64,000 nucleotides of DNA from Halarcobacter sp. (GCA_963676565.1 OY781089.1:2752001-2816000); one strand, 5' to 3'. Positions 4,164-40,409 are shown, numbered from the stretch's first letter. Made by a program: numbers and translations. Notes: generated from the sequence alone by a model not told the origin.

Positions 4164-4173
4164 CGTTATGAAA

Positions 4174-4773: not shown

Positions 4774-4783
4774 TTATTAGATA

Positions 4784-6091: not shown

Positions 6092-6132
6092 AAAATTTCC
6101 CCTTGTTTTATTTTTTGAACACTTGTTCGATA

Positions 6133-6468: not shown

Positions 6469-6500
6469 ACAGTATAAGTTTAAACATAAACTTATACTGT
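6469..6500 (-). terminator. Hairpin after lig-TRAP operon
   Basis: Perfect 14-bp stem acagtataagttta / taaacttatactgt. Confidence 0.65.
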
Positions 6501-6509
6501 TCTAAATAT

Positions 6510-8430: not shown

Positions 8431-8443
8431 TATAAAACCTTAT

Positions 8444-9472: not shown

Positions 9473-9501
9473 GTCTTTTCCCTTTTTTCACTAATCTTTT
9501 A

Positions 9502-11289: not shown

Positions 11290-11707
11290 TTTTCTTCTCC
11301 TCATTCTCTTTTATACTTCTATTTCCCTCAATTGGTCTTCCACCATTAATCATCATTTGTTGGAACTCTTCAGTTGTCATTTTATTTGGTTCTTCAGACA
11401 TCATAGCTCCGGCTTGTTGCATATGTAAACCTAGAGTTGCAGCAATCTTCCATAAATAATAGATATTCCCACCTAATTCAAGAAGGTAATTTAAATCTTT
11501 TCTTCTAATACCATCTTTCATCTCTTCTGTTAATTTAGGGAATCTACTCATATATTCTTCTTCATCAGCTAAAAAAGCTTCCCTTGCATCAGGTTTATTT
11601 AAAGTGTCACAAAATTTATTTAATTCATAACCTTTTACACAAGTTTGTAAGTCAAATACAATTGTTCCAGGTATATCTTTATAGTCTCTTTCTTCATAAC
11701 TTCCCAT
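11282..11707 (-). CDS. ligA: Protocatechuate 4,5-dioxygenase alpha subunit
   Basis: DIPGTIVFD...KGYELNKFC...GGNIYYL...MINGGR. Confidence 0.92.
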   Translation of the reverse strand: MGSYEERDYKDIPGTIVFDLQTCVKGYELNKFCDTLNKPDAREAFLADEEEYMSRFPKLTEEMKDGIRRKDLNYLLELGGNIYYLWKIAATLGLHMQQAGAMMSEEPNKMTTEEFQQMMINGGRPIEGNRSIKENEEKKNG

Positions 11708-11726
11708 AATTTAATCCCTTTCTTTT

Positions 11727-12761
11727 TTAATTAAAATGTTTTTCAATATGTTGATTAATTCTAGGATAAACATTTCTAATATTATCTTCGAATATCATCT
11801 TTTTCTTTTCATCACTAATCTTAGCAGCATCGATGTATCGTTTTGTATCATCAAAATAATGACCTGTTAATGGGTCAATTCCTCTAACTGCTCCAATCAT
11901 TTCAGACGCAAATAAAATATTTTCTGTAGGAACTAAATCTAATAATAAATCAATACCTTCTTGGTGATATACACAAGTATCAAAATAGATATTATTTTCA
12001 ATAATGTTATTTAAATTATCTAATTCTAACATATCACAAAGACCTCTAAATCTTCCCCAATGATAAGGCACTGCTCCACCACCATGTGGGATAACAAATT
12101 TTAACTCTGGAAAGTCTTTAAATAGTGTTTTACTCATCATAAGTTGAGTAAAAGCAGTTGTATCTGCACCTAAATAGTGTGATGATGTTGCATGAAATAC
12201 TGGGTTACAACACCCACTTACATGAATCATTGCTGGAACACCATATTCAACCATCTTTTCATATAATGGATACCAATATTTATCATCTAGCTTTGGAGCA
12301 TCATTCCAATATCCCCCAGATGGATCTGGATTTAAATTACATCCAATAAATCCATACTCTTTTACAACTCTTTCAAGTTCAGCTGCACTTGCAGTCATAT
12401 CTGAACCTGGAGATTGTGGAAGTTGTGCAACACCCACAAAGTTTTTAGGAAAAATATCAACTATTCTTGCAATAAGTTCATTACAATGTTCAGTCCAATT
12501 TTTACTAGTACTTTGATTTCCTATGTGGTGTCCCATCCAAGATGCTCTTGGAGAGAAAATAGTTAAGTCAGTACCTCTTTCTTGTTGTAATTTCAACTGA
12601 TTTTTTTCAACACTTTCTCGCAAAGCCTCATCAGTAATATTAATAACACCCTTTGCATGTTGTACTAAAGGATCAAAACTTAACTCTTTTTTTTGTTGTT
12701 CTCTATAATCACCTAACTCTTTAGGTCCTGTTGTATAATGTCCATGACAATCAATAATCAT
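11727..12761 (-). CDS. ligJ: 4-oxalomesaconate hydratase
   Basis: MIIDCHGHYTT, NLNPDPSGG, IPHGGGAVPYHWGRFRG, FASEMIGAVRGIDP. Confidence 0.93.
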   Translation of the reverse strand: MIIDCHGHYTTGPKELGDYREQQKKELSFDPLVQHAKGVINITDEALRESVEKNQLKLQQERGTDLTIFSPRASWMGHHIGNQSTSKNWTEHCNELIARIVDIFPKNFVGVAQLPQSPGSDMTASAAELERVVKEYGFIGCNLNPDPSGGYWNDAPKLDDKYWYPLYEKMVEYGVPAMIHVSGCCNPVFHATSSHYLGADTTAFTQLMMSKTLFKDFPELKFVIPHGGGAVPYHWGRFRGLCDMLELDNLNNIIENNIYFDTCVYHQEGIDLLLDLVPTENILFASEMIGAVRGIDPLTGHYFDDTKRYIDAAKISDEKKKMIFEDNIRNVYPRINQHIEKHFN

Positions 12762-12762
12762 A

Positions 12763-13482
12763 TTAAGATTCTCCTTTCAATTGAGCTTCATCATCATAAT
12801 ATTTAAATCCTGCTGCTTCTAAACCTGGTCTCATTTTGTATAAATCAAGTCCTAAAACACCAGCTTCAAACTTCTCTCTTTTTTCACCTTCAAAATCTTC
12901 TCTTTTTTGAGCTGCATCTGCAACTATTTTTGCATCTTCTTGTGCAACAATACAAATCCCATCATCATCAGCAACTACAACATCACCAGGATTTACAATT
13001 TGTCCTGCACAAACAATAGGAATATTCACTGAACCTAATGTATTTTTTACTGTACCTCTAATACTAACTGCTTTTGACCATACTGGAAAATCCATTTCTT
13101 CTAAATCTTTAGTATCTCTAACTCCACCATCAATCACAAGTCCTTTAACACCTTGTGCAATAGCAGAAGTTGCTAATAAATCTCCAAAGAAACCATCAGT
13201 ATTTGGTGTTGTACAAGCAGCAATTATAATATCACCTGGTTGTGCTAACTCCATAGCTACATGAAGCATCCAGTTGTCACCTGGCTGAAGTAATACTGTA
13301 ATTGCACTTCCAGCTATTCTTTTCCCTTTAAGTACAGGTCTAAGTTCAGGATGTAATTCCCCTACTCTTTTTTGTGCTTCATGAACTGTTGCACTTCCAA
13401 ACTTTTCTAATCTTTCAATCTCTTCTTTTGGCGCTCTATTTATATTTTTTACAGCTACACCTAAATGTGGTTTTCTAATCAT
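12763..13482 (-). CDS. ligK: 4-carboxy-4-hydroxy-2-oxoadipate aldolase
   Basis: RraA fold: [33 protein letters not shown]; start placed at 13482. Confidence 0.92.
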
Positions 13483-13483
13483 C

Positions 13484-14356
13484 TTAATCCTCCCATCCAT
13501 ATAATCTAGCTGGATTATCAACTAAAATTTTCTTTTGTAAAGCCGGGTCTGGAACCATTAATGGAAATAAATCCATTAAGTCTCCATCATTTGGCATATA
13601 TTTTTTAATATTTGGGTGAGGACAATCTGTTCCCCAAAGGATTCTATCTGGTGCAATTGCCACTAACTTTTGCGCATATGGAATCGCATCATAAAATGGT
13701 GGCTCTGGTGAAATTCTTTCAGCACAAGAGATTTTAACCCACCAATTTTCCCTTTCCATAAATTTACATAAAATTTTAAATGCTTCTTGCTCAACACCCT
13801 CTTTTGTTGGGACTCTACCCATATGGTCAACTACAATTGTAATGTCAAATTTTGCAAAGAAATCTTCATATTTAATTATATCTTCTGCATTTACATGAAT
13901 AACTAAATGCCAACCCAATGGAATTACTTTATTTATAACTCTTTCCATCATCTCTAAATCTGGCGCTCCACCTAAATGTGTAACAAAATTAAACCTAACA
14001 CCTTTAACACCATTTTCATCTAAATATTTAAAATCTTCATCTGTAAAAGTGTCATCTGCCATACAAACACCTTTATATCTTTTAGGATCATTTTTTATAG
14101 CATCTAACATTGCTGTATTATCTTTACCATGGCAAGAAGCTTGAACTAAAACAGCTCTAGAGATTCCAATAGTATCATGCATCTTTCTTAAAAGTGCCTC
14201 TGGTGTATCAGGTGGCCAGTATGTTGCCTTTTGTGAATAAGGAAACACTTCATGTGGTCCAAATACATGACAATGGGCATCACAAGCATTTTCCATAGCT
14301 TTAAATACTGGCGTCTTAGTATTTCTATCTGGCGCCATACAAGTTTTCTTTTCCAA
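13484..14356 (-). CDS. ligI: 2-pyrone-4,6-dicarboxylate lactonase
   Basis: [28 protein letters not shown], WGTDxPHPN; TTG start. Confidence 0.88.
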
Positions 14357-14373
14357 ATTAAACTCCTTCTTTT

Positions 14374-15456
14374 TTAATTTAAATCATCTGGATGTGGATA
14401 AGCCACACCTTTACTTAATAATCTTGCTGTTCTTAATAAGCCAGCTTTTTTAATACTTAATTCGTCATTTATTTTTTCACTTGTTAATTCGACTGTAAAC
14501 TCACCACTTGGATGTTCAATAGTTAAATTAGCAATTGGCATATTTTTTACTTTTATAATATCACTAGTAACACACTCATCATATAAACAAGCACTTGCAA
14601 CAGAAACTGCTCCAAGTACTCCAATTGCTGCATGACAATTGTGAGGTATAAATGTTCGTGTGTTTATGCTTCCACCATTTTTAGGAGCTGAAACAATTGT
14701 CATTTTTGGTACAACTTTTTTTGATACTTCCCCAAGATTCATCATTGGACCAACTTCTAATCTTAATTCTTCTAATGTTTTTCTTAATTCAGAATTTTTG
14801 CTTAACTCTTCACAACTTTCATATCCTGTAATTCCTAATTGATTTGCATTAATCAAAACTACAGGCATACCATTATCAATACATGTAATATCAATATCAT
14901 TTACAATATCTTTTTTATTGCCCGTTGGAAAAAGTGAACCACAAACAGATCCTGCAACATCAAGATAATTACAAATAATTGGTGCTGATGTTCCAGGAAC
15001 TCCATCAATTCTTGCATCACCATCAAATTTTAATTTTTTGTTTGGTGTTTGCATTACAAGTTCACAAATATTGTTACTATTAATCATATTGACTTTTATC
15101 GTTGTCATATCTTCTGTTGGTAATACCATCTTATTTTCAATAGCAAAAACACCAACACCTGATAATATATTTCCACAATTAGGAGAACTGTCAACTCTAT
15201 TTTCACCAACAACTACTTGTACAAAAAGAAAATCTATATCACAATTTTCTTTTTCTGATTTACTTACAATAGCAACCTTACTAGTAAGGGGATTCGCGCC
15301 TCCCAAACCATCAATTTGTCTAGAGTCACGACCAACAATACTTAATATGATTTCATCTCTAAGGTTTTCATCCTGAGGTAAATCATTTTTATCAAAATAA
15401 ATACCCTTTGAACTACCACCTCTTATTTGCATATATGGTATTGATTCATAACTCAT
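14374..15456 (-). CDS. ligU: 4-oxalomesaconate tautomerase (PrpF family, LigU/GalD)
   Basis: RGGSSKG, QIDGLGGANPLTSKVAIV, PNCGNIL, RTFIPHxCHAAIGV, LRTAR. Confidence 0.9.
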   Translation of the reverse strand: MSYESIPYMQIRGGSSKGIYFDKNDLPQDENLRDEIILSIVGRDSRQIDGLGGANPLTSKVAIVSKSEKENCDIDFLFVQVVVGENRVDSSPNCGNILSGVGVFAIENKMVLPTEDMTTIKVNMINSNNICELVMQTPNKKLKFDGDARIDGVPGTSAPIICNYLDVAGSVCGSLFPTGNKKDIVNDIDITCIDNGMPVVLINANQLGITGYESCEELSKNSELRKTLEELRLEVGPMMNLGEVSKKVVPKMTIVSAPKNGGSINTRTFIPHNCHAAIGVLGAVSVASACLYDECVTSDIIKVKNMPIANLTIEHPSGEFTVELTSEKINDELSIKKAGLLRTARLLSKGVAYPHPDDLN

Positions 15457-22877: not shown

Positions 22878-24497
22878 ATGTCAACAAAAAAGTTTGAAAA
22901 TATTATTAGATCAATAGAAGAAATACCCAATGAATTTAGATTTGATGGTGAGATAATTCAAAGTGAATATTTAATAGATGGCGAGATTAGAAATTGGAAA
23001 GGGGAACAACAGGATGTTTATTCCCCAATTTGTTTAAAAGAGAATGAGAATAAACAATTTAAACTAGGAACTTATCCCATGTTAACTCAAATAGAAGCAA
23101 ACCAAGCTTTAGAGTCTGCTTCAAATGCATATAATATGGGAATGGGAGAATGGCCTCAAATGAGTGTAGGTCAAAGAATTAAACATATTGAAAAATTCAC
23201 TTTTAAAATGATTGAAAAAAGAGATGAAGTTGTAAAACTTCTAATGTGGGAAATTGGAAAATCATATAAAGATTCCCAAAAAGAGTTTGATAGAACAGTT
23301 GATTATATTAAAGATACTATTGATGCTTTAAAAGAGTTAGATAGAAAAAATTCAAAACTTGAGATTAATTCAGGAATATTAGCACAAATAAAAAGATCTC
23401 CTATTGGGATTACATTGTGTATTGGGCCTTTTAATTATCCATTAAATGAAACCTTTACAACATTAATTCCTGCACTTATTATGGGGAATGTAGTAATCTT
23501 TAAACCCCCAAAATTTGGAGTACTATTACACAAACCATTACTTGAAGCTTTTAAAGACTCTTTTCCTAAAGGTGTAGTAAATACTCTTTATGGTTCAGGG
23601 GCAAAACTCTTAACACCATTAATGAAAAGTGGAAAAATTGATGTTTTAGCATTTATAGGTAGTTCAAATGTTGCAAGCCAATTAAAACATAATCACCCAA
23701 AACCAAATAGATTAAAAGCAATATTAGGTCTTGAAGCAAAAAATGCAGGAATAATAATGCCCGATGCGAATTTGGAAGTTGCAGTAAATGAATGTGTTTC
23801 AGGTAGCTTATCTTTTAATGGTCAAAGATGTACAGCTTTAAAAATATTGTTTGTGCATGAAAATATTGTTGGAAGTTTTTTAGAACAATTTAATGCAAAA
23901 ATTGATGATATCAAATGTGGATTGCCATGGGATGAAGATGTTCAAATAACACCTCTTCCTGAGTATAAAAAAACAGAATATCTAAAAGAATTAATTGATG
24001 ATGCACTTAAAAATGGAGCAAATATTGTAAATAAAAATGGTGGGACTATTAAAAATACCTTTATGTTTCCTGCTGTATTGTATCCAGTAAATAAAAATAT
24101 GAAAATTTATCATGTGGAGCAATTTGGCCCAATAGTTCCAATACTTACATACAAAGATATAAAAGAACCTCTACTTTATATGATGGAATCAAACTATGGA
24201 CAACAAGTTAGTATTTTTGGGAAAAATTCAGATGAGATTGCAAAACTAGTTGATGGCTTAGTAAATCAAGTAAGTCGTGTAAATATAAATTCTCAATGTC
24301 AAAGAGGACCAGATATTTTCCCATTCACAGGGAGAAAAGATTCAGCACAAAGTACATTATCTGTTAGTGATGCATTAAGAGCTTTTAGTATTAGATCAAT
24401 GGTTGCTATGAAAAATGACGCAGATAATAAAGAACTAGTCACATCAATACTTAGAAACCATAAATCTAATTTCTTATCAACTGATTTTATTCTTTAA
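22878..24497 (+). CDS. gapN: NADP-dependent aldehyde dehydrogenase, non-phosphorylating GAPDH-like
   Basis: GPFNYPLNE, FIGSS, GQRCTALK catalytic Cys, EQFGP, FPFTGRKDS. Confidence 0.72.
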   Translation: MSTKKFENIIRSIEEIPNEFRFDGEIIQSEYLIDGEIRNWKGEQQDVYSPICLKENENKQFKLGTYPMLTQIEANQALESASNAYNMGMGEWPQMSVGQRIKHIEKFTFKMIEKRDEVVKLLMWEIGKSYKDSQKEFDRTVDYIKDTIDALKELDRKNSKLEINSGILAQIKRSPIGITLCIGPFNYPLNETFTTLIPALIMGNVVIFKPPKFGVLLHKPLLEAFKDSFPKGVVNTLYGSGAKLLTPLMKSGKIDVLAFIGSSNVASQLKHNHPKPNRLKAILGLEAKNAGIIMPDANLEVAVNECVSGSLSFNGQRCTALKILFVHENIVGSFLEQFNAKIDDIKCGLPWDEDVQITPLPEYKKTEYLKELIDDALKNGANIVNKNGGTIKNTFMFPAVLYPVNKNMKIYHVEQFGPIVPILTYKDIKEPLLYMMESNYGQQVSIFGKNSDEIAKLVDGLVNQVSRVNINSQCQRGPDIFPFTGRKDSAQSTLSVSDALRAFSIRSMVAMKNDADNKELVTSILRNHKSNFLSTDFIL

Positions 24498-24585: not shown

Positions 24586-24789
24586 CTATTTTTTTAAACA
24601 ATGAAAACTTTCCTTAGTCCATCTTCTAAATAAGCAGTTATAACAAGAATTAAATTTACTAGAGGTTACTAGTTCATCTTCATCTGCATCTAAATAAAAA
24701 TTTTTACATGAGTTAGCACTTTCTTTTGCCTTTTCATAGTTTTCTCTTCCAAATTTAAATACAAATTTGTCATCTATTTTTTCAAACAT
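24586..24789 (-). CDS. Small four-Cys hypothetical protein (possible Fe-S/Zn binding)
   Basis: CKNF...DEDE...SCYNCLFRRW...FHC; starts 1 nt after the upstream stop. Confidence 0.75.
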   Translation of the reverse strand: MFEKIDDKFVFKFGRENYEKAKESANSCKNFYLDADEDELVTSSKFNSCYNCLFRRWTKESFHCLKK

Positions 24790-24790
24790 T

Positions 24791-25528
24791 TTAGTATTTC
24801 CTTAATTCTTCTGTTGTCAATAATAAATATTCATCAAGTACTTTTTTAATAAGTACAACTGATTTGTGATTAAGCATAACTCTTTTTAATTTGTCATTTA
24901 TTTTTATGTTTATATCACTATTTGCAATTTGACCATTAGGAAATTGCACCTCATCAATACTTCCATGTTCTAATAACTCTTTCACACTTATGTATTCTCT
25001 TAATACTTTTAGATTTCCTTTTACCCTTCCATCACTTCCATATAATCTCAATGCAACTCCTGCTAAAGCTCCAATAACACCTTGTCCATTGTTTTTATGT
25101 TCGCTTAAATGTAGATTTTGAATTTTAGCCATTTCATATGCTTCATCTTTTGTTAACACTTTTTGTTTAGCATCAAATCCATATTGAATTAAATTTTGAG
25201 TATCAGTAAAATCTTTTTCAAAACCTATACAAATCCCTGGCTGTGAGGTTGGTGCTGAATATTTTTCTATATATTCTATTACAAACTTTGTAATCTCTTC
25301 TTTTTCTTCATATGTCAAATATGTTGTAAAACACATTGAACTATTGTGGGAAGTATAAGGAATATCTTCATGAATGAATAACTGATGCCTTGTAATTAAA
25401 GAACACGTTTTATCATATTTCTCTTCAATATGATTTTGAATCTCTTCACTTAATTGTCCAGTTGATTTTTCATAACCTATCTCATCTGTATCATCGATAC
25501 AAATATATGTTTTATAACTACTCATCAT
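24791..25528 (-). CDS. TiaS N-terminal-domain-like (DDTD) protein of unknown function
   Basis: CIDDTD...STG, RHQL..HEDIPYTSHNSSMC, SQPGIC, GQGVIGALAG. Confidence 0.7.
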   Translation of the reverse strand: MMSSYKTYICIDDTDEIGYEKSTGQLSEEIQNHIEEKYDKTCSLITRHQLFIHEDIPYTSHNSSMCFTTYLTYEEKEEITKFVIEYIEKYSAPTSQPGICIGFEKDFTDTQNLIQYGFDAKQKVLTKDEAYEMAKIQNLHLSEHKNNGQGVIGALAGVALRLYGSDGRVKGNLKVLREYISVKELLEHGSIDEVQFPNGQIANSDINIKINDKLKRVMLNHKSVVLIKKVLDEYLLLTTEELRKY

Positions 25529-26420
25529 AACTCCTGTTTAAAAACAATTGATAAAATTCTTCTTTCTTCTTATCAAAATTATTTGGAAAATATTTAGGAT
25601 AAACTTTTGAACCTAACCAATAAGCACCCAATGTTTTAAAAAAAGATGGTGGATTATCTATCCAGTTTATTGGCTTTTGTGGTATTAAAAATACTTTTTT
25701 ATCTTTTACTGCTTTTAGATATCTATATTTATTGTTTGAAAATACATCTTTATAAAAATTTTTTTTATTTGTAATTATTACATCTGGATTTATTAAAAAT
25801 AGTTGTTCTAGATTAATTGTAATTCTCATATTTTTTAAATCATTACACTTTATTGGATTTTTTGCATTTATTAAGTTTATTGCTTCTGAATGGATAGAAT
25901 CTTCACATTCTGTTACTAAACCATCATCACTTTTTGCATAATATACATTTAGTAAATCATTATTAGGAATCTTTTTTGTTAATAGATTAATATTTGCTAA
26001 TTCTTTTTGAATATACTTAGATAAACTATTTCCCCTATCCTCTTTTCCCATAACTTTTCCCAAAGTTTTATACCCTTGGATATAACTTTCAATAGTTGTT
26101 AAATCAATTGAACAAGAATCAATTCCTACTTTTTCTAACTTATTGGCTAATTTTGAGTAATTACCTTTTGAATTCCAAAGAACAACTAAATCAACTTTTT
26201 TATTTAATAAATCTTCAACTGATTCTAGTTTTTTAAAGGGATCTACTTTATTTGATATTTTATCTGGAAACTTCAACTCATATACAGATTGAATCATCAT
26301 ATTAACTGGCCGAGACTTACCAACAACATTTTTTGCAACTTTTCCATATTCGCTACATTGTTTAATCTGTGATGAGAATAAAGAACTTAATAAAATAAAA
26401 AACAAAAATACTATTTTCAT
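25518..26420 (-). CDS. Fe/B12-type ABC transporter substrate-binding protein
   Basis: Signal peptide from 26420, ESVEDLL, NPDVII, AVKDKKVF, WIDNPPS. Confidence 0.85.
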   Translation of the reverse strand: MKIVFLFFILLSSLFSSQIKQCSEYGKVAKNVVGKSRPVNMMIQSVYELKFPDKISNKVDPFKKLESVEDLLNKKVDLVVLWNSKGNYSKLANKLEKVGIDSCSIDLTTIESYIQGYKTLGKVMGKEDRGNSLSKYIQKELANINLLTKKIPNNDLLNVYYAKSDDGLVTECEDSIHSEAINLINAKNPIKCNDLKNMRITINLEQLFLINPDVIITNKKNFYKDVFSNNKYRYLKAVKDKKVFLIPQKPINWIDNPPSFFKTLGAYWLGSKVYPKYFPNNFDKKKEEFYQLFLNRSYDE

Positions 26421-26431
26421 AAAATCTTTCC

Positions 26432-27196
26432 TTAGGCAAATTTGGGTATACAAAAGCTATGTTTATATAAATCTGTGATTTCGACATCTATTCCATATAA
26501 CTGTTTAATACTATTTTCATTTATCACTTCAGAGGTAACTCCATCATCTAAAACTTTTCCATCTTTAATAAGGATAGATTTGTTTGAGACTAAAAATGCA
26601 TGGTCAGGATAATGTGTCGATTTAATAAAGGTATACCCTTTTTGTGATAATTTTTTAATATGTTCTAAAAGTCTTAATTGATTACCATAATCTAATCCAC
26701 TAACTGGTTCATCCATAATAAATATTTTTGCTTCTTGTGCTAATGCCCTAGCAATTAAAACTAACCTTTTTTGTCCACCACTTAATTCATTATAAGCTTT
26801 TTTATAAAGATTAGATAAACCAACAACTTCTAGACTATTAAGTGCAATCTCTTTATCTTTTTTATTATAAGAAGAAAAAATACTTTGATAAGCAATCCTT
26901 CCCATCATCACAACTTCTAAAACACTAAAAGAAAAAGGTAAAAAGCTATTTTGAGGGACATATGCAATTTTTTTAGCTAAATCTTTTTGTTTATATTTAG
27001 AAACATCTTTATCTTCTAAATATATTTTTCCCGTGCTTGGAGGTAAAAGTCCTAGAATCAATTTTATCAAAGTTGTTTTTCCTGCTCCGTTTGCACCTAA
27101 TAAAGAGATAACATCACCATCTTGTATATTTAAACTAATACCATCTAATACATTTTTATTTGAATATCTATAACTAACATCACATATTTTTATCAT
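26432..27196 (-). CDS. ABC transporter ATP-binding protein (FepC/BtuD-like)
   Basis: GANGAGKTT, LSGGQ, MDEP. Confidence 0.92.
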   Translation of the reverse strand: MIKICDVSYRYSNKNVLDGISLNIQDGDVISLLGANGAGKTTLIKLILGLLPPSTGKIYLEDKDVSKYKQKDLAKKIAYVPQNSFLPFSFSVLEVVMMGRIAYQSIFSSYNKKDKEIALNSLEVVGLSNLYKKAYNELSGGQKRLVLIARALAQEAKIFIMDEPVSGLDYGNQLRLLEHIKKLSQKGYTFIKSTHYPDHAFLVSNKSILIKDGKVLDDGVTSEVINENSIKQLYGIDVEITDLYKHSFCIPKFA

Positions 27197-28209
27197 CAAC
27201 TCAATCCTTTTCTTGAATTTTTTAAAGCAATAATAAACATTGGAATTCCAACAATAGAAGTTAAAATACCTATTGGAATTTCAATACTTAAAAGTAGTCT
27301 TGAAAAATTGTCTACTAAAACTAAAAAGATTGCTCCCATTAGTGCAACAGTTGGGATTAAAACAATATTATTTGATCCAACTATCAGCCTTGCAAAATGG
27401 GGAATAATCAATCCTATCCACCCTATCATACCTCCAATTGAAACACTTAATGCACTTATTAATGTTGCACATAAAATCACTATAAATCTGATTAACTTTA
27501 TATTTACACCTAAACTTTTTGCTTCATCATCTCCAAAACTTAAGATATTTAAATATTTGGACATAATTATTAAAGAAAAAATCCCTAATAACATTGGAAT
27601 AGAATATAAGCATATTTCATTTAATTCAACAGAAGCTAAACTGCCCATAAGCCAATAAACAATTGATGGTAATTTATCATAAGGATCTGCTGTATATTTA
27701 ACTATTGAAAGTAAAGTTGAAAAGAATGATCCACTAATAATCCCACCTAAAATAAGTATTAAAGTTGAACTATTTCTTTCTTTATAAATATATGTAATAA
27801 ATATTGCAAAAACTACAGCTATTACACCAAATATAAAAGAGAAAATTTGAGTTAAAAACCAACTATTAAAAAATGCAAGTGACAATGTTGCACCAAAAGC
27901 TGAGCCTGAAAGAACACCCAAAATACCTGGTGAAACAAGTGGGTTCATAAACATTGATTGAAAAGATGCCCCTGCAACGGCGTAAGATGCACCAATTAAT
28001 ATTGCAGCTAATATTCTAGGTAATCTTATATCAAAAATTATATTTTCTAAAAGTTGGAACTTTTCTATAGCAGAAGGTTCTATTCCAAGAAAGAAGTATT
28101 TCATCACCTCCATAAACTCTGATATAGATATTTTGTAATGTCCTAAAAATAAAGAACAAATAGAAAGACTTAAAAGTATAGCTACTAATAAAAAGTAAGT
28201 TTTTTTCAT
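27196..28209 (-). CDS. FecCD/BtuC family ABC permease
   Basis: IRLPRIL, NPLVSPGILG, GWIGLIIPHFAR, EIPIG. Confidence 0.92.
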   Translation of the reverse strand: MKKTYFLLVAILLSLSICSLFLGHYKISISEFMEVMKYFFLGIEPSAIEKFQLLENIIFDIRLPRILAAILIGASYAVAGASFQSMFMNPLVSPGILGVLSGSAFGATLSLAFFNSWFLTQIFSFIFGVIAVVFAIFITYIYKERNSSTLILILGGIISGSFFSTLLSIVKYTADPYDKLPSIVYWLMGSLASVELNEICLYSIPMLLGIFSLIIMSKYLNILSFGDDEAKSLGVNIKLIRFIVILCATLISALSVSIGGMIGWIGLIIPHFARLIVGSNNIVLIPTVALMGAIFLVLVDNFSRLLLSIEIPIGILTSIVGIPMFIIALKNSRKGLS

Positions 28210-28229
28210 CTAAGTCTTCCTATTTTTAA

Positions 28230-30170
28230 TTAGAATTTATATGTTAATTTTACGTAGTATTCTCTACCTGGCTCAGGATAACCTAAATCTAACTCATAGT
28301 TTTCATCAGTTAAGTTTGTTACACCTGCACTAAATAAAACATCTTTTGAAATTTTATAGTCTGCATTAACACCAATAACTTTTATATTCGATACATTTAC
28401 ATAGTTACTATTAGCATCTTCTAGAATCAAATCTTTTTTAAAAGTCATGTTTGCAGTAAGTTTTAAATCTTTTGTTGGAGTATAATCTGCAAAAAAGTAA
28501 GCACTATGTTTAGGAACATCTGTTACAACAATAGAACCATCATCTTTTTCAATATTTATGTAAGTATAATTAAAACCTAAAGTGTATAAGTCTTGTTTAT
28601 ATTTTAAAGAGGTTTCAAACCCTTTGTACTGTTCTTTTCCTGTGTTTTGTTCTTGACTTTTAGAACCAGAAACATTGTCAACTATTCTAATAGGGTCTTT
28701 TACATTAATTAAAAATAATGCTGTATCAAATTCAAGATTATCAAAATTGATTTTATGTCCTAATTCATAGTGTGTTGCTTTTTCAGGTACTAAATCAGGA
28801 TTAATCAATGCTTTACCTTTTTTATCTGAAAATCTTTCTTTTAAAGTTGGTAAATGTGTTTTTTTAGCAATTGTAAATCTAGTAGTTTGATTTTCTTTAA
28901 AATCATAAAAGAAACCTACTTGCCCATTGTATGCATCATTTGATTTTGTTTCAACAATTGTATCATATGTAATTGCTTCCGTAGGATTTGCATAATCATA
29001 ACTAAGTGAAGTGATAATTTTAAATCTTTCATTTGGTTCATAAATATCTTCTGCTGCAAGTGAATATACTTTTTCAACAAATTTATCATCTAATCCACTT
29101 TCACTTCCTGCAGCCCTGTTGATTTCATGGTTATCTTTTTTTACATTTAAAGCAAATTTTATAGTATGTTCATCTGACCATCCATATTCTGTATACTCTA
29201 AACCACTTCCAATACTATAAGCATCTGTATATTCTAATTTATTTAAATTTACCCAACCATTTTTATACTCTTCGTATGTATTTTTATAACTTGTTCTATA
29301 TAATTTAAATTTGATATCTGCTGTATCATATTTTTTATTAGTAATAAAATATAATGAATTGCTATCCCAAGTTGGCCAATCAATATATTTTTCTTTTCCA
29401 TCATCTTTATCTACTACTGTTGGTTGAGATTTTTCAGAGTTTAAATAATTCATTCCTAATACATATTCAGTATTGTTATCAGGAGTATAACCTGCTTTTA
29501 AATTAAATGATTTTGAATCTGAATCACTATGGTCTCTTTCCCCTTCACTTTGCAATGCTGTTGATACATAATCATCCGAAAGACTCCAATGATCTCTATT
29601 TTTTAATGTTCCATTGAATTGTAGATAATACTTATCTTGCTTTGTTCCTAAACTTAAAGTATTTAACCATTGAGATTGATTGAAATCATTATCAAAATTT
29701 ATTTGAGAAGAGATACTACCTTCAAACTCCTTTGTAGGTTTTTTTGTTACGAAATTCACAACTCCACTCATTGTATTTGGCCCAAACATTGTTGAACTAA
29801 AACCTTTTGCTATATTTACACTATCTAAATCAGTAGATAAAATTCTTGAATAATCAAAATTTCCATCATAAGGTACATAAATTGGTATACCATCAATAAA
29901 TATACCTGTTCTTGTAGCTTCAAGACCTCTAATCATTAAAGAACTTTCTTCCCTACCACCTTTATGCTCAATTGTAATTCCAGATTGAGTATCCAAGACT
30001 TTTGCAATATCTTTTTCTGGATTAGATATCAATTCTTCATTTGAAACCTTTTTTACATCTAGTATCTGTTGCTGTTTTGCTGAGATAGAAATCTCACCTA
30101 ATGTAAATGTATCTTCTGCAATTAATAAAGTAGAAGATAACAATAATAAACATGAAAAACTTATTTTCAT
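28230..30170 (-). CDS. TonB-dependent receptor
   Basis: Signal peptide, TonB-box-like LGEISISA, plug (IRG...IDGIP...GVVNFVTKKP), NPDLVPEKA, NLTDENY...GREYY..TYKF. Confidence 0.92.
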   Translation of the reverse strand: MKISFSCLLLLSSTLLIAEDTFTLGEISISAKQQQILDVKKVSNEELISNPEKDIAKVLDTQSGITIEHKGGREESSLMIRGLEATRTGIFIDGIPIYVPYDGNFDYSRILSTDLDSVNIAKGFSSTMFGPNTMSGVVNFVTKKPTKEFEGSISSQINFDNDFNQSQWLNTLSLGTKQDKYYLQFNGTLKNRDHWSLSDDYVSTALQSEGERDHSDSDSKSFNLKAGYTPDNNTEYVLGMNYLNSEKSQPTVVDKDDGKEKYIDWPTWDSNSLYFITNKKYDTADIKFKLYRTSYKNTYEEYKNGWVNLNKLEYTDAYSIGSGLEYTEYGWSDEHTIKFALNVKKDNHEINRAAGSESGLDDKFVEKVYSLAAEDIYEPNERFKIITSLSYDYANPTEAITYDTIVETKSNDAYNGQVGFFYDFKENQTTRFTIAKKTHLPTLKERFSDKKGKALINPDLVPEKATHYELGHKINFDNLEFDTALFLINVKDPIRIVDNVSGSKSQEQNTGKEQYKGFETSLKYKQDLYTLGFNYTYINIEKDDGSIVVTDVPKHSAYFFADYTPTKDLKLTANMTFKKDLILEDANSNYVNVSNIKVIGVNADYKISKDVLFSAGVTNLTDENYELDLGYPEPGREYYVKLTYKF

Positions 30171-30233: not shown

Positions 30234-30262
30234 TATAAATATGCTAATTGAGCATATTTATA
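30234..30262. promoter_or_regulatory. Perfect 12-5-12 inverted repeat upstream of TonB-receptor operon
   Basis: TATAAATATGCT-AATTG-AGCATATTTATA, about 64 bp before the ATG. Confidence 0.55.
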
Positions 30263-33965: not shown

Positions 33966-35375
33966 TTAAGCTAATTCATGGGCTAAATCTGACTCAGCTT
34001 GCTCAAGCATTGCAAACTCTTCATCTGCTGTTTTAGCAACTAAATGGTTTTTACTATATAAGAAGTAATATAAAGCACCAATTACATAAAGAATAATTGT
34101 ATAAAAAAATGCTCTAGGATCAAATGCATAAACACCTGTTAAAGCGATTAAAGATAAAACAAATGCTATACCTGAAGTTACAGTACCACCTGGAGTTTTG
34201 TATGGTCTTGGCATCTCTGGGTTTTTAACTCTTAATAAAATATGACTTAAAGACATTAAAGCATATGAAATTGTTGCACCCACTACTGCCATAGCTAACA
34301 TTAGATCACCTTCACCACTTAAAGAAGCTAAGAAACCTAAAACACCTGGAACAATTAAAGCCCAAGTTGGAGTTTTTCTTTTACTAGTTAGTGATAAAAA
34401 TTGTGGTAAATATCCTGCACGTGAAAGTGCAAAAATCAATCTACTATATCCATAAATGATTGAGAAAAATGATGCAATTAATCCAGCTAATCCTAAAACA
34501 TTAACAGTTGTTGCTAATGTTGTATTTCCAGTTGCATTCAATGCATCTACTAAAGGCACTGCACTTTTACCAATTACTTCTGCTCCAGTTGCACTAGGAA
34601 CTAAAAATATAACTAATGCAGCAGTAAATAGTAAGAAAATCATTGCAGCGATGATACCTTTTGGTACATCTTTAGCTGGATCTTTTGCTTCTTCTGCTGC
34701 TAATGGAACACCCTCAACAGCCAAGAATAACCACATAGCAAAAGGTAATGCTGCCCAAACACCATACCAACCTAAAGGTAACATCTCAGTAGCTCCTGCA
34801 ACATCAGCTGAAGCAGCAATATCAAACAGTTTAGTAGAATCAAAATCACCTAAAAGTGCAACAGCAGTTGCTAAAATTGCAAATACAGCTAAACCACTAA
34901 TCACCATCATTGTTTTAAGTGCTTCACCAGCACCAATTAAATGAATAGCAATAAATACAGCATAAAATAATGCATAAACAATAGGACCATTGAATCCCGT
35001 CAAAGCTTCAACGGCAGAACCAATAAATATTACAATAGCAGCAGGTGCTAAAGCATACTCAATCAAGATAGCTAGACCAGTTAAAAAACCACCAGCTGGT
35101 CCCATAACTTGTCTAGCAAAACTATATCCACCACCAGCGGCAGGGATTGAAGCTGACATTTCTGCTAAAGATAATACTAAACAAAAATACATTAAAGCCA
35201 TTAAACCCGCAGCGATTGAAAATCCTCCCCAACCAGCTTCAGCTATACCAAAGTTCCATCCTGCAAAATCCCCTGAAATCACATATGAAATCCCTAAACC
35301 TGCTAATAAAATCCAACCAGCAGTACCTCTTTTTAGTTGCCTTTTAGCAAGATAATCTTGATTTAAATTACTCAT
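33966..35375 (-). CDS. eat: Ethanolamine permease (APC family)
   Basis: YLAKRQLKRG, YVISGDFAGWNFG; in operon with eutBC. Confidence 0.92.
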   Translation of the reverse strand: MSNLNQDYLAKRQLKRGTAGWILLAGLGISYVISGDFAGWNFGIAEAGWGGFSIAAGLMALMYFCLVLSLAEMSASIPAAGGGYSFARQVMGPAGGFLTGLAILIEYALAPAAIVIFIGSAVEALTGFNGPIVYALFYAVFIAIHLIGAGEALKTMMVISGLAVFAILATAVALLGDFDSTKLFDIAASADVAGATEMLPLGWYGVWAALPFAMWLFLAVEGVPLAAEEAKDPAKDVPKGIIAAMIFLLFTAALVIFLVPSATGAEVIGKSAVPLVDALNATGNTTLATTVNVLGLAGLIASFFSIIYGYSRLIFALSRAGYLPQFLSLTSKRKTPTWALIVPGVLGFLASLSGEGDLMLAMAVVGATISYALMSLSHILLRVKNPEMPRPYKTPGGTVTSGIAFVLSLIALTGVYAFDPRAFFYTIILYVIGALYYFLYSKNHLVAKTADEEFAMLEQAESDLAHELA

Positions 35376-35384
35376 TTTCTTTCC

Positions 35385-36239
35385 TTATTTTATTAAAAAA
35401 TTTTCTTCATTTATATTGTTTTCTATAATATTGTTTGTTGTTCTATCTTTTAGGTTTACACCTGATAATTCAAGTCTTCTTGACTCTTTTAATAGATACA
35501 TTGTTTTCTTTATTGCCTCTTCATATGATAATCCCTCATTTCTAATATTTGATATACAGTTTCTACTTTCATCAGTAAGTCCAACTTTCGGATTGTAAGT
35601 TAAATATAATCCCATACTATCAGGAGAACTAAGTCCTGGTCTTTCACCAATTAATACAATAGAAGTTTTAGAGTTTAATATCTCTCCAACCTCATCTCCA
35701 ATAGCGACTCTTCCTTGCAAAACTATAGTGATTGGTGCAATATTCCAATTTTGCGAATCTGTATTTAATTCTTCAATAAGCTTTTTTATAAATATTGAAG
35801 AATTTTCTTTGATTGCAAGAGAAGATAAACCATCCACTACTACAATTGATAAATCATATTTTTCATTTTTTAAAGTATTTACTTTTTTTAATGTTTCGAT
35901 TGATTTTTTATCTAATCTTCTTCCTAAATCTGGTCTTTGAAGGTAAGTTGTTCTATTTATTGCTTGGGAATGCAATAGTATTGGTGTAAATATCTCTTGC
36001 TCTTGATTTAAAATAAGATTTGCATTTTCTAGTTGCTCAATAACTGTCTCAACATCTAAAGGAAGATGGACAGCATCTTGTGCTTGTGCGTGGGCTAGTT
36101 GAAACTCTAAAGAATGAGAAGTTGGAATACTAACTCCTGCCCGTCCTAAACCAATTCTAGCATCAGTATAATCTCTAAGGGCAGACCATGGGTTTTCAAT
36201 AACATTTTGTTTATCATTTGCTTTTTTAATATTACCCAT
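35385..36239 (-). CDS. eutC: Ethanolamine ammonia-lyase light chain
   Basis: TDARIGLGRAG, YLQRPDLGR, IGERPGLSSPDS, RNCISNI. Confidence 0.96.
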   Translation of the reverse strand: MGNIKKANDKQNVIENPWSALRDYTDARIGLGRAGVSIPTSHSLEFQLAHAQAQDAVHLPLDVETVIEQLENANLILNQEQEIFTPILLHSQAINRTTYLQRPDLGRRLDKKSIETLKKVNTLKNEKYDLSIVVVDGLSSLAIKENSSIFIKKLIEELNTDSQNWNIAPITIVLQGRVAIGDEVGEILNSKTSIVLIGERPGLSSPDSMGLYLTYNPKVGLTDESRNCISNIRNEGLSYEEAIKKTMYLLKESRRLELSGVNLKDRTTNNIIENNINEENFLIK

Positions 36240-37639
36240 TAGTTTGTTCCTATTGCATTTGATAGTGAATTAGAAAATGTCTTAGGCATTTTGTCATTTA
36301 AAATGAAATCATCCATATTTTTAAAGATTTCCATTTTTTCCAACCATGCTGTAAATTCAGGTGCTGGCTTTAGATTTAAAACTTTTCTAGCATATAAAGC
36401 ATCATGGAAAGAGGTAGTTTGATAATTAAGCATAATATCATCACTTCCAGGAATACCCATTATAAAATTACACCCTGCAACACTTAAAAGTGTTAATAGA
36501 TTATCCATATCGTTTTGGTCTGCATCGGCATGGTTTGTATAGCATATGTCACACCCCATAGGAACACCTAACAGTTTCCCACAAAAATGATCTTCTAATC
36601 CAGCTCTTGTAATCTCTTTTCCATCAAACAGATACTCAGGACCTATAAAACCTACAACAGTATTTACCAAAAGAGGATCAAATTTTTTAGCTACGGCATA
36701 AGCTCTAGCTTCACATGTTTGTTGGTCAAGACCAAAGTTTGCATTTGCTGATAGGGAACTTCCTTGACCTGTTTCAAAATACATTACATTGTTTCCAACT
36801 GTACCTCTATTTAGAGATAATGCCGCTTCATGTGCCTCTTTTAAAATACTTAAGCTTACACCAAAACTTGAGTTTGTAGCCTCTGTTCCTCCAATAGATT
36901 GAAACACTAAATCAACTGGAGCTTTTTTCTCAATTGCTTCAATTGTATTTGTAACATGAGTTAAAACACATGATTGGGTTGGTATTTCATATTTTTGGAT
37001 AACATCATCCATAAGCTTAAGCAGCTTTATTGTTTGCTCAACATTATCTGTTGCTGGATTTATTCCAATTACTGCATCACCATTTCCATATAATAATCCA
37101 TCTAAAATACTTGCAGCAATTCCTCTTACATCATCAGTTGGGTGGTTTGGTTGAAGTCTAGTAGAGAGTTGATTTGCTAAGCCAATTGTATTTCTAAAAG
37201 ATGTAACAACTGGGCATTTTTTAGCTACTAAAATTAAATCTTGATTTCTCATAATCTTACTAACAGCAGCTACCATTTCAGGTGTGATTCCATCTCTTAC
37301 ATATTTTATTACATCTGGTGTAGTTTCATCGCTTAATAACCAGTTTCTAAAATCACCTACAGTTAAATGAGAAATTGGTTCAAAGGCCTCTTTATCATGC
37401 CCATCAATAATAAGTCTTGTAATTTCATCATCCTCATAAGGAACTAAAGCTTCAGTTAAAAAGTTTTTTAAAGGAACTTCAGCCAATCTCATTTGAGCTA
37501 TCACTCTTTCTTGAGAAGAAAGAGCTGAAACTCCTGCTAATAAATCACCTGAACGCTTTGGAGTTGCCTTAGCCATTAAATCAGCCAAATTTTTAAAAGT
37601 ATAAGTCCTATTTCCTAAAACATATTTATAACTATTCAT
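36239..37639 (-). CDS. eutB: Ethanolamine ammonia-lyase heavy chain
   Basis: RSGDLLAG, RLQPNHPTDD, YFETGQG, GFIGPEY, DICYTNH. Confidence 0.97.
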   Translation of the reverse strand: MNSYKYVLGNRTYTFKNLADLMAKATPKRSGDLLAGVSALSSQERVIAQMRLAEVPLKNFLTEALVPYEDDEITRLIIDGHDKEAFEPISHLTVGDFRNWLLSDETTPDVIKYVRDGITPEMVAAVSKIMRNQDLILVAKKCPVVTSFRNTIGLANQLSTRLQPNHPTDDVRGIAASILDGLLYGNGDAVIGINPATDNVEQTIKLLKLMDDVIQKYEIPTQSCVLTHVTNTIEAIEKKAPVDLVFQSIGGTEATNSSFGVSLSILKEAHEAALSLNRGTVGNNVMYFETGQGSSLSANANFGLDQQTCEARAYAVAKKFDPLLVNTVVGFIGPEYLFDGKEITRAGLEDHFCGKLLGVPMGCDICYTNHADADQNDMDNLLTLLSVAGCNFIMGIPGSDDIMLNYQTTSFHDALYARKVLNLKPAPEFTAWLEKMEIFKNMDDFILNDKMPKTFSNSLSNAIGTN

Positions 37640-38084: not shown

Positions 38085-38564
38085 TTAATTTTTTTTCTTT
38101 TTAAAGTTTTCAATAAACTTTGAAAAGCCTAAATAAAACTTTGATTTAAGATTATTATTTTGTGAAGTTAAAAACTCAACAATTTCAGTATGACCAAACA
38201 TACTTGCAAAGGTTATGGGTGTAGTTCCCATTCCATTATTTTCATGAATGTTTGCACCTGCTTTTACAAGAATTTTAACAATGTCTAAATATCCTTTGAA
38301 ACAAACACCAGCTAAAGGTGTTTGTCCCCTGTCGTTTTTTTGATCTACCAAAGCTCCATAACTTAGTATCATTTCTGTAGTTTCTATATTACCATTGTAA
38401 GAAGCTAACATCAAAATAGAATTACCTTTATGGTCGCATAAGTTTTCTGACATACCTGCATTTAACATCAATTTTAAATCTTCAGTTTTTCCGTACCTTG
38501 CATAATCAAGTGCAATTACTTGAAGTTCCTCATATCTATTTAATTCATCTACTGTAAATGTCAT
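38085..38564 (-). CDS. Ankyrin repeat protein (catalase accessory, Cj1386/AnkB-like)
   Basis: GNSILMLASYNG, GQTPLAGVCFKG, GTTPITFASMFG repeats; directly after katA. Confidence 0.88.
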   Translation of the reverse strand: MTFTVDELNRYEELQVIALDYARYGKTEDLKLMLNAGMSENLCDHKGNSILMLASYNGNIETTEMILSYGALVDQKNDRGQTPLAGVCFKGYLDIVKILVKAGANIHENNGMGTTPITFASMFGHTEIVEFLTSQNNNLKSKFYLGFSKFIENFKKKKN

Positions 38565-38565
38565 T

Positions 38566-39993
38566 TTATACTCCTAATGCTTTTTTAACTCCAGTTGCAT
38601 AATCTGGATGTACCTTTTCAAATAAAGCAATTTGTCTATCAATAATATCTTGAGGAACTCCATCCATTGCATCTTTAATATTGTTGAACAACTGCTCTTT
38701 TTGGTTTTCACTCATTAAAGTAAATAGTGCAGTAACTTGAGTAAAATCATCATTTCCAACTCTATGGTCATATCTATCAGCTATATCACCTACTTCTAAT
38801 TGTGGCTCAGAATATTTTTTGTCTTCAACTGGTCCATTAAAACTATTTGGTTCATAGTATGCATCTGTTCTTTCTCTTTGCTCAAAATTCATACTTCCAT
38901 CTGCATTATAAGTATTTACATCAACTATTGGTCTATTTACTGGTAACATCTCATAGTGTGTTCCAACTCTATATCTATGAGCATCTGGGTAAGAGAAAAT
39001 TCTAGCTTGTAACATTTTATCTGGTGAGAATCCAATACCTGGAACTACATTTGATGGAGAAAATGAAGCTTGTTCTATTTCGTTAAAATAGTTTTTAGGA
39101 TTTTCATTTAAAGTCATTTCACCAACTTTGATCATTGGATAATCTCCATGAGGCCAAACTTTTGTCAAGTCAAATGGGTTAAAATTAGATTCTTTTGCCT
39201 GCTCTTCTGTCATAACTTGAATTTCAAAACTCCACTTAGGAAAGTTTTTATTTTCTATGTTTTCAAATAAATCTCTTTGATTTGATTCTCTATCTTTAGC
39301 TACAATCTCCTCTGCTTCTTTATTTGTAATAGTTTCAATTCCTTGTTTTGTTTTGAAGTGAAATTTAACCCAAACTCTTTTACCTTCGTCATTAATTAAA
39401 CTATATGTATGTGAACCATATCCATTTACATGTCTATATGATTTTGGAAGTCCTCTATCAGACATTAAAATTGTTACTTGATGCAGACTTTCTGGACTTA
39501 ATGACCAAAAATCCCAAGCAGCTGTATTACTTCTTAGATTTGAAACGGGATGTCTTTTTTGGGTATGTATAAAATCAGGAAATTTATATGCATCTCTAAT
39601 AAAAAAAACAGGAGTATTATTACCAACTAAATCCCAATTACCTTCTTTTGTATAGAATTTAAGAGCAAATCCTCTTACATCTCTTTCTGCATCTGCTGCT
39701 CCTTTTTCACCTGCAACAGTTGAGAATCTAAGTAAAAGTCTTGTTTTTTCACCTTTTTGTAATACTTTTGCTTTAGTATATTTTGAAATATCTTCTGTGA
39801 TTTCTAAAACACCATATGCCCCACTACCTTTTGCATGAACTACTCTTTCTGGAATTCTTTCTCTATTTTGATGAGCTAGTTTTTCAATTAATTGATAGTC
39901 TTCTAATAATACTGGCCCTCTTTGACCTGCTGTTTTAGAGTTTTGATTATCCGATATTGGATTACCAGCTGTTGTTGTTAATGTCTTTTTCAT
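38566..39993 (-). CDS. katA: Monofunctional heme catalase
   Basis: [39 protein letters not shown]. Confidence 0.96.
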
Positions 39994-40221: not shown

Positions 40222-40296
40222 TGGCTCCGGCACCTGGATTCGAACCAGGGACCAAATGATTAACAGTCATCTACTCTACCACTGAGCTATGCCGGA
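40222..40296 (-). tRNA. tRNA-Asn(GTT)
   Basis: TCCGGCATAGCTCAGTGGTAGAG...GACTGTTAATC...GGTTCGAATCC...GCCGGAGCCA. Confidence 0.97.
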
Positions 40297-40334: not shown

Positions 40335-40409
40335 TGGCTCCGGCACCTGGATTCGAACCAGGGACCAAATGATTAACAGTCATCTACTCTACCACTGAGC
40401 TATGCCGGA
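40335..40409 (-). tRNA. tRNA-Asn(GTT), identical tandem copy
   Basis: Same 75-nt sequence with encoded CCA. Confidence 0.97.

Follow-up and report, generated by a model that had tools for sequence, protein, structure and literature searches.

TiaS is an archaeal tRNA-modifying enzyme that uses ATP to activate the C2 carbonyl oxygen of cytidine. In the quite separate field of molybdenum and tungsten (Mo/W) metabolism, the routing of the two metals from transporter to pyranopterin cofactor, and the way in which cells tell them apart, are unsettled. One of the described importers, MolBC-A, is a low-affinity molybdate/tungstate system that is repressed by molybdate and encoded beside modA and modD (PMC4031551, PMC3928620), and its binding protein MolA binds bare oxyanions (PMC4031551). 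Cytoplasmic proteins that take over the imported metals have also been described, namely the ATP-dependent molybdenum storage protein and the Mop/Tub (TOBE) proteins (PMC11980592). Here we analyse a stretch of 64,000 nucleotides (nt) from Halarcobacter sp. (GCA_963676565.1 OY781089.1:2752001-2816000; hereafter the window), in which an importer of the MolBC-A type is joined in one operon to a TonB-dependent receptor, a stand-alone TiaS-kinase-domain (TCKD) protein and a four-cysteine miniprotein. We consider it probable that this operon is a third, accessory Mo/W acquisition system beside ModA and TupABC, in which the TCKD and four-cysteine proteins handle the metal in the cytoplasm. The Mo/W context is suggested by a permease that is nearest to MolB, by tupA, wtpA and moeA in the neighbourhoods of relatives, by molybdenum/tungsten cofactor (Moco/Tuco) riboswitches at homologous loci, and by a promoter palindrome common to formate dehydrogenase and moeA-tup genes.

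The six-gene operon and its importer

Six open reading frames (ORFs), all on the minus strand and co-directional in the ORF listing of the window, span positions 24586-30170. The first encodes the TonB-dependent outer-membrane receptor (646 residues, 28230-30170; Pfam Plug 3.2e-18 and TonB_dep_Rec_b-barrel 2.1e-30). It is followed by the MolB-like permease of a type II ATP-binding cassette (ABC) importer (337 residues, 27196-28209; FecCD 2.2e-80), an ABC ATPase that is MolC-like by position (255 residues, 26432-27199; ABC_tran 5.1e-33) and a periplasmic binding protein of the cluster A type (311 residues in the longest ORF, 25518-26453; Peripla_BP_2 2.8e-13). The last two genes encode the TCKD protein (245 residues, 24791-25528), recognised by fold and profile matches to TiaS, and the four-cysteine miniprotein (67 residues, 24586-24789), recognised by its conserved cysteine pattern and its pairing with the TCKD gene. 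An initial annotation, made by a model from the sequence alone, had listed the same six genes, all of which were found where it placed them, and Pfam confirms its receptor, permease, ATPase and binding protein. From the receptor to the 67-residue gene the junctions measure +20, -4, -22, -11 and +1 nt, the four-cysteine gene beginning 1 nt past the TCKD stop codon. The annotated limit of 20 nt on overlaps and gaps holds for four of these junctions and is exceeded at one by the 22-nt overlap, which hinges on the chosen start codon; the probable start of the binding protein is an ATG near 26420, 11 codons into the longest ORF, which gives a typical signal peptide. Co-transcription of the receptor and the MolBC-A-type importer with the TiaS-kinase-fold protein and the four-cysteine miniprotein is strongly supported. 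A simple promoter and terminator scan returned nothing above shuffled sequence (35 promoter-like sites against a shuffle mean of 44.3, and no terminators).

Among solved structures the closest relative of the permease is HI1471 (MolB; E 6.2e-68, 232.8 bits), followed by FhuB (175.8 bits) and by HmuU and BtuC (~140 bits). The solved relatives of the binding protein are 4pag (2e-50), 4ovk (7.9e-13) and HI_1472 (MolA; 3e-9), and no relevant paper was found in the literature searched for 4PAG, 9HRJ, 9HT5 and 4OVK. Neither the receptor nor the ATPase reaches an NCBIfam equivalog cut-off, and the ATPase comes nearest to a heme ATPase model, with 196 of the 261 bits required.

The generic names that such genes attract (FecCD, the TonB-siderophore and TonB-hemin subfamily, and a heme ABC ATPase as the best match of the ATPase) would be consistent with uptake of an iron chelate or haem, with the last two genes as passengers of unrelated function. 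However, all siderophore and haem models score below their curated cut-offs, no iron or haem genes recur among the neighbours at the homologous loci described below, and the two small genes are conserved partners of transporters across phyla rather than passengers. In addition, the best match to a Fur box in the 317 nt upstream of the operon is 12 of 19 positions, a score that 300 random 317-nt stretches of the window yield more often than any other; the consensus used is that of E. coli, so that a divergent Campylobacterota Fur site could have escaped it. Iron or haem uptake is therefore a highly improbable explanation.

The TiaS-like protein and its four-cysteine partner

The 245-residue protein is a true homologue of the kinase domain of TiaS, well beyond chance, yet it is not TiaS. 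Its AlphaFold2 model (mean predicted local distance difference test score, pLDDT, 96.6) comprises the TCKD fold at residues ~1-165 and a beta-rich C-terminal domain at ~175-245. VIA-align, an all-against-all aligner independent of Foldseek, superposes the model on TiaS 3amt_A with Z 21.9 and a root-mean-square deviation of 1.9 Å over 157 residues at 23% identity, and on P. furiosus TiaS with Z 14.6, while the next, unrelated chain reaches Z 7.6. The top nine Foldseek matches in the PDB are likewise all TiaS (best E 1.8e-9, ~160 columns at 2.2-2.9 Å), residues 1-165 dominating such whole-model searches. A single-sequence search of the PDB with the 245-residue protein gave chance-level matches only (E 0.43), and a family profile was needed; built from 66 members, this profile finds P. 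furiosus TiaS (2.7e-13) and A. fulgidus TiaS (1.6e-11) over query residues 1-155. The NCBIfam model for TiaS (NF040849) also matches (E 8.9e-7), at 27.8 bits against a cut-off of 600. The likeness to TiaS, which the initial annotation had pointed out and proposed to check with Foldseek, is genuine by profile, Foldseek and VIA-align alike. The motifs on which it was based (IDDTD-x6-ST, IPYTSHN, SQPG and GQGVIGALAG) are present in the translation and fall on invariant or near-invariant columns of the family. It is also correct that the protein is too short for the OB-fold and Zn-ribbon parts that bind tRNA, as the chain ends at residue 245 and only positions 3-154 of the 422 in the TiaS profile are matched.

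Across the 66 family sequences D12, T14, D15, H48, T59, N62, G98, G153, L160 and G164 are invariant. The conserved motifs are DDTD, PY-T--N, PG and G-G-IGALA, to which the family adds invariant motifs of its own, RHQL and SHNSS. These motifs, together with the length of 245 residues, the match to only 154 of 422 profile positions and the presence of TilS in the genome (TIGR02432, 168.3 bits, cut-off 93.6), set the protein apart from TiaS, and since the genome has its own TilS a role for the TCKD protein in tRNA modification is not needed.

The best NCBIfam match of the 245-residue protein is methanogenesis marker protein 11 (TIGR03280; E 5.9e-13, residues 6-160 against positions 134-282 of 292), for which no published function was found in the literature searched. 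The family counts 6571 homologues at E <= 0.001 and 620 clusters at 50% identity, nearly all members being labelled 'hypothetical protein', and these span Campylobacterota, Bacillota, Desulfobacterota, Gammaproteobacteria, Chloroflexota and others. A class-wide search found a match in 10 of 151 Campylobacteria genomes, in six of which it covers the C-terminal part only, so that the system is patchy, and probably mobile, within this class. The six partial matches (G029, G090, G105, G107, G134 and G135), all from one genus, align with the family profile at ~149-244 only, in ORFs of 108-160 residues; they represent remnants or else a C-terminal domain encoded on its own. No paper on a bacterial stand-alone TiaS-like protein or on its pairing with the four-cysteine protein was found in the literature searched, subscription-only papers and supplements lying outside the search. 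The protein had been put forward as part of an undescribed system, and the sequence and literature searches made turned up no function assigned to the family.

Gene neighbourhoods were compared in 80 loci from species genomes (designated L below), the best among 398 that were confirmed; they are the closest relatives and not a random sample, and the window is not counted. ORFs were called by a longest-ORF rule with a minimum of 45 residues, so that short genes may be missed, and were then clustered; clusters of at least two members were annotated and singletons left out. Each count is a number of loci, among which related genomes are not independent observations.

Half of these loci (40 of 80) encode a four-cysteine member at most 5 kb from the TCKD gene, usually directly 3' of it. 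In 35 four-cysteine sequences C28, F31, D34, E39, C49, C52, R55, W57 and C64 are invariant, within the pattern C-x2-F-x2-D-x-EDE ... sCYNC-x-YRRW-x4-F-x-C, which has no match in Pfam or NCBIfam. The same cysteine motif is fused to the C-terminus of the TCKD protein in 12 of 150 representatives listed, out of the 620 clusters at 50% identity; the fusions measure ~290-340 residues, with one of 922. Because of this adjacency and natural fusion, the conclusion that the two proteins act as a conserved functional pair is strongly supported. Prediction of a complex between them speaks neither for nor against binding (scores of 0.51, 0.01 and 0.02 in three runs). The model of the four-cysteine protein (mean pLDDT 85.1) has no Foldseek match in the PDB and a best Z of 2.2 in a wide VIA-align search, which does not in itself make the fold new, and a search of the ESM Atlas returned unnamed clusters only.

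TiaS also phosphorylates itself. T23 of the TCKD protein, which is at least 90% conserved in the family, aligns in the profile alignment with TiaS Thr18, which we take to be the autophosphorylated residue. It could be argued from this conservation that the TCKD protein does not act on cargo but serves as a regulatory autokinase or switch, either gating the importer or reporting metal status. The fusions to the four-cysteine protein, a tandem triplication in Syntrophomonas, the association with three transporter classes and the presence of moeA and moaC among the neighbours better suit a metabolic or chaperone role, and a purely regulatory autokinase seems very unlikely.

Molybdenum and tungsten context of the homologous loci and of this genome

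Of the 80 loci, 52 encode a type II ABC permease or binding protein no further than 5 kb from the TCKD gene, and 8 carry a set resembling an energy-coupling factor (ECF) transporter (ATPase, CbiQ-type T component and a 190-residue membrane protein); either type of importer occurs in 59, which bears out the expectation that homologues of this protein are linked to transporters. A TonB receptor of the same cluster as that in the window is found within 5 kb in 25 loci, a surface Big_5 protein in 32 (in Gram-positives) and a named Mo/W gene in 21, and a Mo/W marker gene or riboswitch in 38. The recurring named neighbours are TupA, WtpA, MoeA, MoaC, the MOT1 transporter, FmdE, an XdhC-type AOR maturation factor and molybdopterin oxidoreductases. 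In the four nearest relatives with long contigs, all Arcobacteraceae (L002, L003, L004 and L006, from Halarcobacter, Malaciobacter, Poseidonibacter and Arcobacter), the genes follow one another in one direction in the order moeA-tupA-tupB-tupC(-wtpA)-permease-ATPase-binding protein-TCKD-Cys, with the receptor gene adjacent (TupA E 1.5e-102; WtpA 358.6 bits against a cut-off of 355; MoeA by Pfam). In a Pasteurellaceae relative (L073, Glaesserella) TCKD, Cys and receptor genes lie beside the importer. The TCKD gene also adjoins MOT1-family MFS transporters, away from any ABC system, in L022, L042 and L065, and so is found beside three unrelated transporter classes (type II ABC, ECF-like and MOT1). 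Together with moeA and moaC as neighbours, this suggests that the TCKD protein acts on the path of the metal or cofactor and not on an organic cargo specific to one transporter.

Several further features of these loci were observed. In L013, L027, L033, L051, L063, L069 and L074 (e.g. L074:6609-7337) the TCKD gene follows a TonB receptor and the ECF-like set, whose 190-residue membrane protein has no family match and could be an S component. Syntrophomonas and its relatives (L046, L052, L059, L064 and L070) carry two or three tandem TCKD copies per operon, adjoining a riboswitch-controlled molybdopterin oxidoreductase and an XdhC-type AOR maturation factor. In L041, L042, L056, L061, L064 and L065 the neighbours of the TCKD gene include one of the amino-acid-kinase family (weakly UMP-kinase-like, E 1.1e-19), often accompanied by an 88-residue gene that belongs to no known family; the kinase-family gene resembles those of ATP-dependent molybdenum storage proteins. 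An NAD(P)-type aldehyde dehydrogenase gene adjoins the TCKD and Cys genes in the window (22878-24497, convergent) and in two distant loci (L047:1084-2529 and L069, co-directional), which may be chance.

In the window no riboswitch of any kind reaches the Rfam gathering score, and the scan returned two tRNAs only. Rfam Moco/Tuco aptamers (RF01055) were present in 6 of the 16 homologous loci first scanned. A covariance model (R1) built from nine Rfam hits of these 16 loci finds 33 such aptamers in 24 of the 80 loci and none in the window. When 12 loci chosen as model hits were re-scanned with Rfam all 16 model hits were confirmed, the Rfam total being 25 hits in 18 of 28 loci scanned. The aptamer heads a co-directional run of genes that includes the TCKD gene in 19 of the 80 loci, with two more (L010 and L039) cut or interrupted. 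It lies directly 5' of the TCKD gene in L063, where control of an ECF-type system by a Moco/Tuco riboswitch would be unusual, and directly upstream of the TonB receptor of the same cluster in L010. Stem P3 is absent in all three alignments displayed, and 31 of the 33 aptamers measure 116-124 nt against a consensus of 135 nt. Regulski et al. (PMC2408646) tie P3-less aptamers to the tungsten cofactor and describe a Syntrophomonas operon with tandem aptamers and 'genes of unknown function'. There is strong support for the view that the homologous operons are switched by Moco/Tuco riboswitches. Nothing on a Moco riboswitch together with TonB or FecCD was found in the literature searched.

These scans also bear on the proposal that the operon takes up corrinoids (B12) in the manner of BtuB and BtuCDF, with the TCKD protein as a corrinoid-processing kinase that serves the nearby B12-dependent ethanolamine ammonia-lyase. 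Genes for eutB, eutC and an amino-acid permease do lie ~5 kb off at 33966-37639, and sub-threshold NCBIfam matches were obtained for the permease to BtuC (190 bits against a cut-off of 334) and for the receptor to BtuB (86.3 against 599.7). However, neither the window nor any of the 28 homologous loci scanned has a cobalamin riboswitch at the Rfam gathering score, whereas 18 of these 28 carry Moco/Tuco aptamers; the permease scores 232.8 bits to MolB against ~141 to BtuC; the match to BtuF is 26.8 bits against a cut-off of 234; and no cobalamin genes are among the recurring neighbours. We give this proposal very little credence. The Rfam result, together with a Fur-box match at background level, agrees with the earlier observation that no clear Fur box or cobalamin riboswitch lies upstream and that ordinary iron or B12 uptake is not indicated.

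In this genome a link to Mo/W genes is provided by a perfect 27-nt palindrome (30235-30261) situated 69 nt upstream of the receptor ATG, with the core ATATGC-N7-GCATAT at 30239-30257. The palindrome is unique in the window and had no match in 100 shuffles, and its core occurs at nine sites in the 3.34-Mb genome against 0-1 in 10 shuffles. Promoter regions account for five of the nine: one formate dehydrogenase operon is preceded by two sites and a second such operon by a single site, a further site lies 34 nt ahead of fdhD, and the fifth precedes the receptor gene of the window. Behind fdhD come a ModE-like repressor domain (TIGR00637, E 5.8e-19), moeA and tupABC. The core is also found 88-105 nt upstream of the orthologous receptor in L002, L004 and L006, and overlaps the longest-ORF start in L003; no core site within one mismatch was found near modA at 732526. 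The operon lies apart from the other Mo/W genes, moeA-tupABC being at 1.987-1.991 Mb and modA at 0.733 Mb, with the window starting at 2.752 Mb. We infer that the palindrome is the operator of a ModE-like, Mo/W-responsive regulator and that the operon belongs to a formate dehydrogenase/tungsten regulon. Tungsten is the likelier of the two metals, because the neighbouring classical transporters are TupA and WtpA, the aptamers lack P3, and the palindrome joins tup and formate dehydrogenase genes but not modA.

The catalytic genes of the two formate dehydrogenases (G000:C1:1974608-1977448 and 1980475-1983306, equivalent to L086:2608-5448 and 8475-11306) each consist of a 186-residue and a ~750-residue ORF in the same frame, split by an in-frame TGA in the context ARIUHSATV, and both are probably selenocysteine enzymes. 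The duplicated fdh operons each include a Fer4 subunit and a cytochrome b subunit.

Uptake of B12, uptake of iron or haem and a purely regulatory autokinase are minor rivals to Mo/W acquisition; the main rival is an import-and-modify salvage of organic, W/Mo-related cargo, such as a metallophore-bound metal or a precursor of the pterin or cofactor. In such a system the TCKD enzyme would phosphorylate or otherwise activate a carbonyl of the cargo, either to free the metal or to let the compound re-enter the cofactor pathway. This would be in keeping with TiaS chemistry, which works on an organic carbonyl (PMC11938285), and with the large cargo that type II ABC importers and TonB receptors usually carry. 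The receptor (25 of 80 loci), the Big_5/SLH proteins that come first behind the riboswitch (32 of 80) and the ECF-like variant with its candidate S component (8 of 80) fit a bigger or scarcer cargo, and control by a cofactor-sensing riboswitch suits cofactor salvage and metal uptake equally. A third tungstate pump, moreover, looks redundant in relatives whose operon already has TupABC and WtpA. Nevertheless, the TCKD gene lies beside MOT1 without an ABC system in L022, L042 and L065, and directly behind a riboswitch in L063, implying that the enzyme goes with the metal pathway and not with any one cargo-specific transporter. Bare oxyanions are the ligands of MolA, the relative that has been characterised, and no metallophore biosynthesis genes are present in the 80 loci among clusters of at least two members (singleton ORFs left out). 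We regard salvage as unlikely, and since three unrelated transporter classes adjoin the TCKD gene the evidence favours an enzyme that handles the metal itself rather than one that modifies an imported organic molecule. The initial annotation had foreseen import and modification of a small molecule rather than action on tRNA; dispensing with a tRNA role agrees with the presence of TilS, whereas its open list of cargoes gives way to evidence that converges on Mo/W.

A number of observations weigh against Mo/W acquisition. Seventeen of the 80 loci lack a transporter within 5 kb and have neither a Mo/W marker gene nor a riboswitch. The window itself has neither a riboswitch nor a Mo/W gene, so that the link to these metals is drawn from homologues and from a candidate operator motif. 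The match to the ModE-like domain is below its curated cut-off (68 bits against 98.5), and four of the nine core sites are not related to Mo/W, three being intragenic and one lying between secG-like and frr-like genes. The resemblance of the binding protein to MolA is distant, and its nearest solved relative, 4pag, is an unnamed structural-genomics protein. The TonB receptor, the surface immunoglobulin-like and SLH proteins of Firmicutes and the ECF-like variant are not what uptake of a free oxyanion ordinarily involves, and might point to a larger cargo.

Elsewhere in the window, positions 9502-15456 and 1096-9472 hold a protocatechuate 4,5-cleavage-type set (LigA, LigB, PrpF, two amidohydrolases, an RraA-like aldolase and a GFO/IDH oxidoreductase) that adjoins TRAP transporter genes, an FAD phenol-hydroxylase-like monooxygenase and a MarR regulator, forming an aromatic-degradation island in a Campylobacterota-like genome. 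A catalase gene followed by a gene for a small ankyrin-repeat protein occupies 38085-39993. The two tRNA genes (40225-40296 and 40338-40409) are 42 nt apart, have equal Rfam scores (71 bits) and are probably tandem duplicates.

Proposed role and comparison with described systems

If the operon serves the acquisition of Mo/W, the ModE-like regulator of the fdhD-moeA-tupABC operon would repress it through ATATGC-N7-GCATAT, and its genes would be co-expressed with the two selenocysteine formate dehydrogenases under a shortage of metal or cofactor. The receptor and the importer would then bring a Mo/W species (tungstate, molybdate or a bound form) into the cytoplasm. There, by analogy with TiaS and speculatively, the TCKD enzyme might use ATP to activate an oxo group, either on the metal species or on its carrier, and the four-cysteine protein would receive the metal on its thiolates and hand it on towards MoeA and cofactor assembly. 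As a tentative suggestion, to which we attach low confidence, the pair may provide a hitherto unrecognised ATP-dependent step of Mo/W cofactor supply in which an oxo group of the oxyanion is activated as a phospho- or adenylyl-ester and the metal passes to a tetrathiolate carrier, whose thiolates imitate the four dithiolene sulfurs of the bis-pyranopterin cofactor, before handover to MoeA. Discrimination between tungsten and molybdenum could also take place at such a step, and formylmethanofuran dehydrogenase could be served in the same way by methanogenesis marker protein 11. A pair that is found in thousands of genomes, under the control of Moco/Tuco riboswitches, is a concrete and testable candidate for a missing step between transporter and cofactor. 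If this is true, a second and very different job would be added to tRNA modification, hitherto the sole known use of the TiaS kinase fold, and the routine annotation of such operons as iron-chelate transporters would be corrected.

Among described proteins, TiaS shares with the 245-residue protein the N-terminal TCKD fold, its motifs and the equivalent of Thr18. It differs in length (~420 residues against 245), no OB fold or zinc ribbon being matched in the protein described here, and in setting, as TiaS is archaeal and acts on C34 of tRNA(Ile2) in the absence of TilS, whereas the 245-residue protein is bacterial, linked to Mo/W transport and accompanied by TilS. Methanogenesis marker protein 11 is another protein that has the same domain without being TiaS; the match reaches 48.6 bits against a cut-off of 255.8 and is confined to the C-terminal half of the profile, marker 11 having an extra N-terminal half. 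The molybdenum storage protein and the Mop/Tub proteins are precedents for cytoplasmic takeover of imported Mo/W, one of them using ATP, but they have no sequence or fold relation to the TCKD and four-cysteine proteins, both of which lack a TOBE domain.

The regulatory logic and neighbourhood of the operon resemble those of TupABC/WtpABC and ModABC under ModE or Moco/Tuco riboswitches. Relatives have moeA, tupABC and wtpA in the same operon, P3-less riboswitches head homologous operons, and this genome has a gene for a ModE-like regulator. Those systems are, however, type I ABC importers that have neither an outer-membrane receptor nor a cytoplasmic ATP-using partner. MolBC-A of Haemophilus influenzae (HI1470/HI1471/HI1472) has the same layout of binding protein, permease and ATPase, the nearest permease and, like the present operon, a Mo/W context. 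The binding protein here is far nearer to 4pag (2e-50) than to MolA (3e-9), its predicted substrate being a Mo/W species. The transporter core is therefore of a known kind, that of MolBC-A, and what is new is the addition of a TonB-dependent receptor in front and of the TCKD and four-cysteine pair behind.

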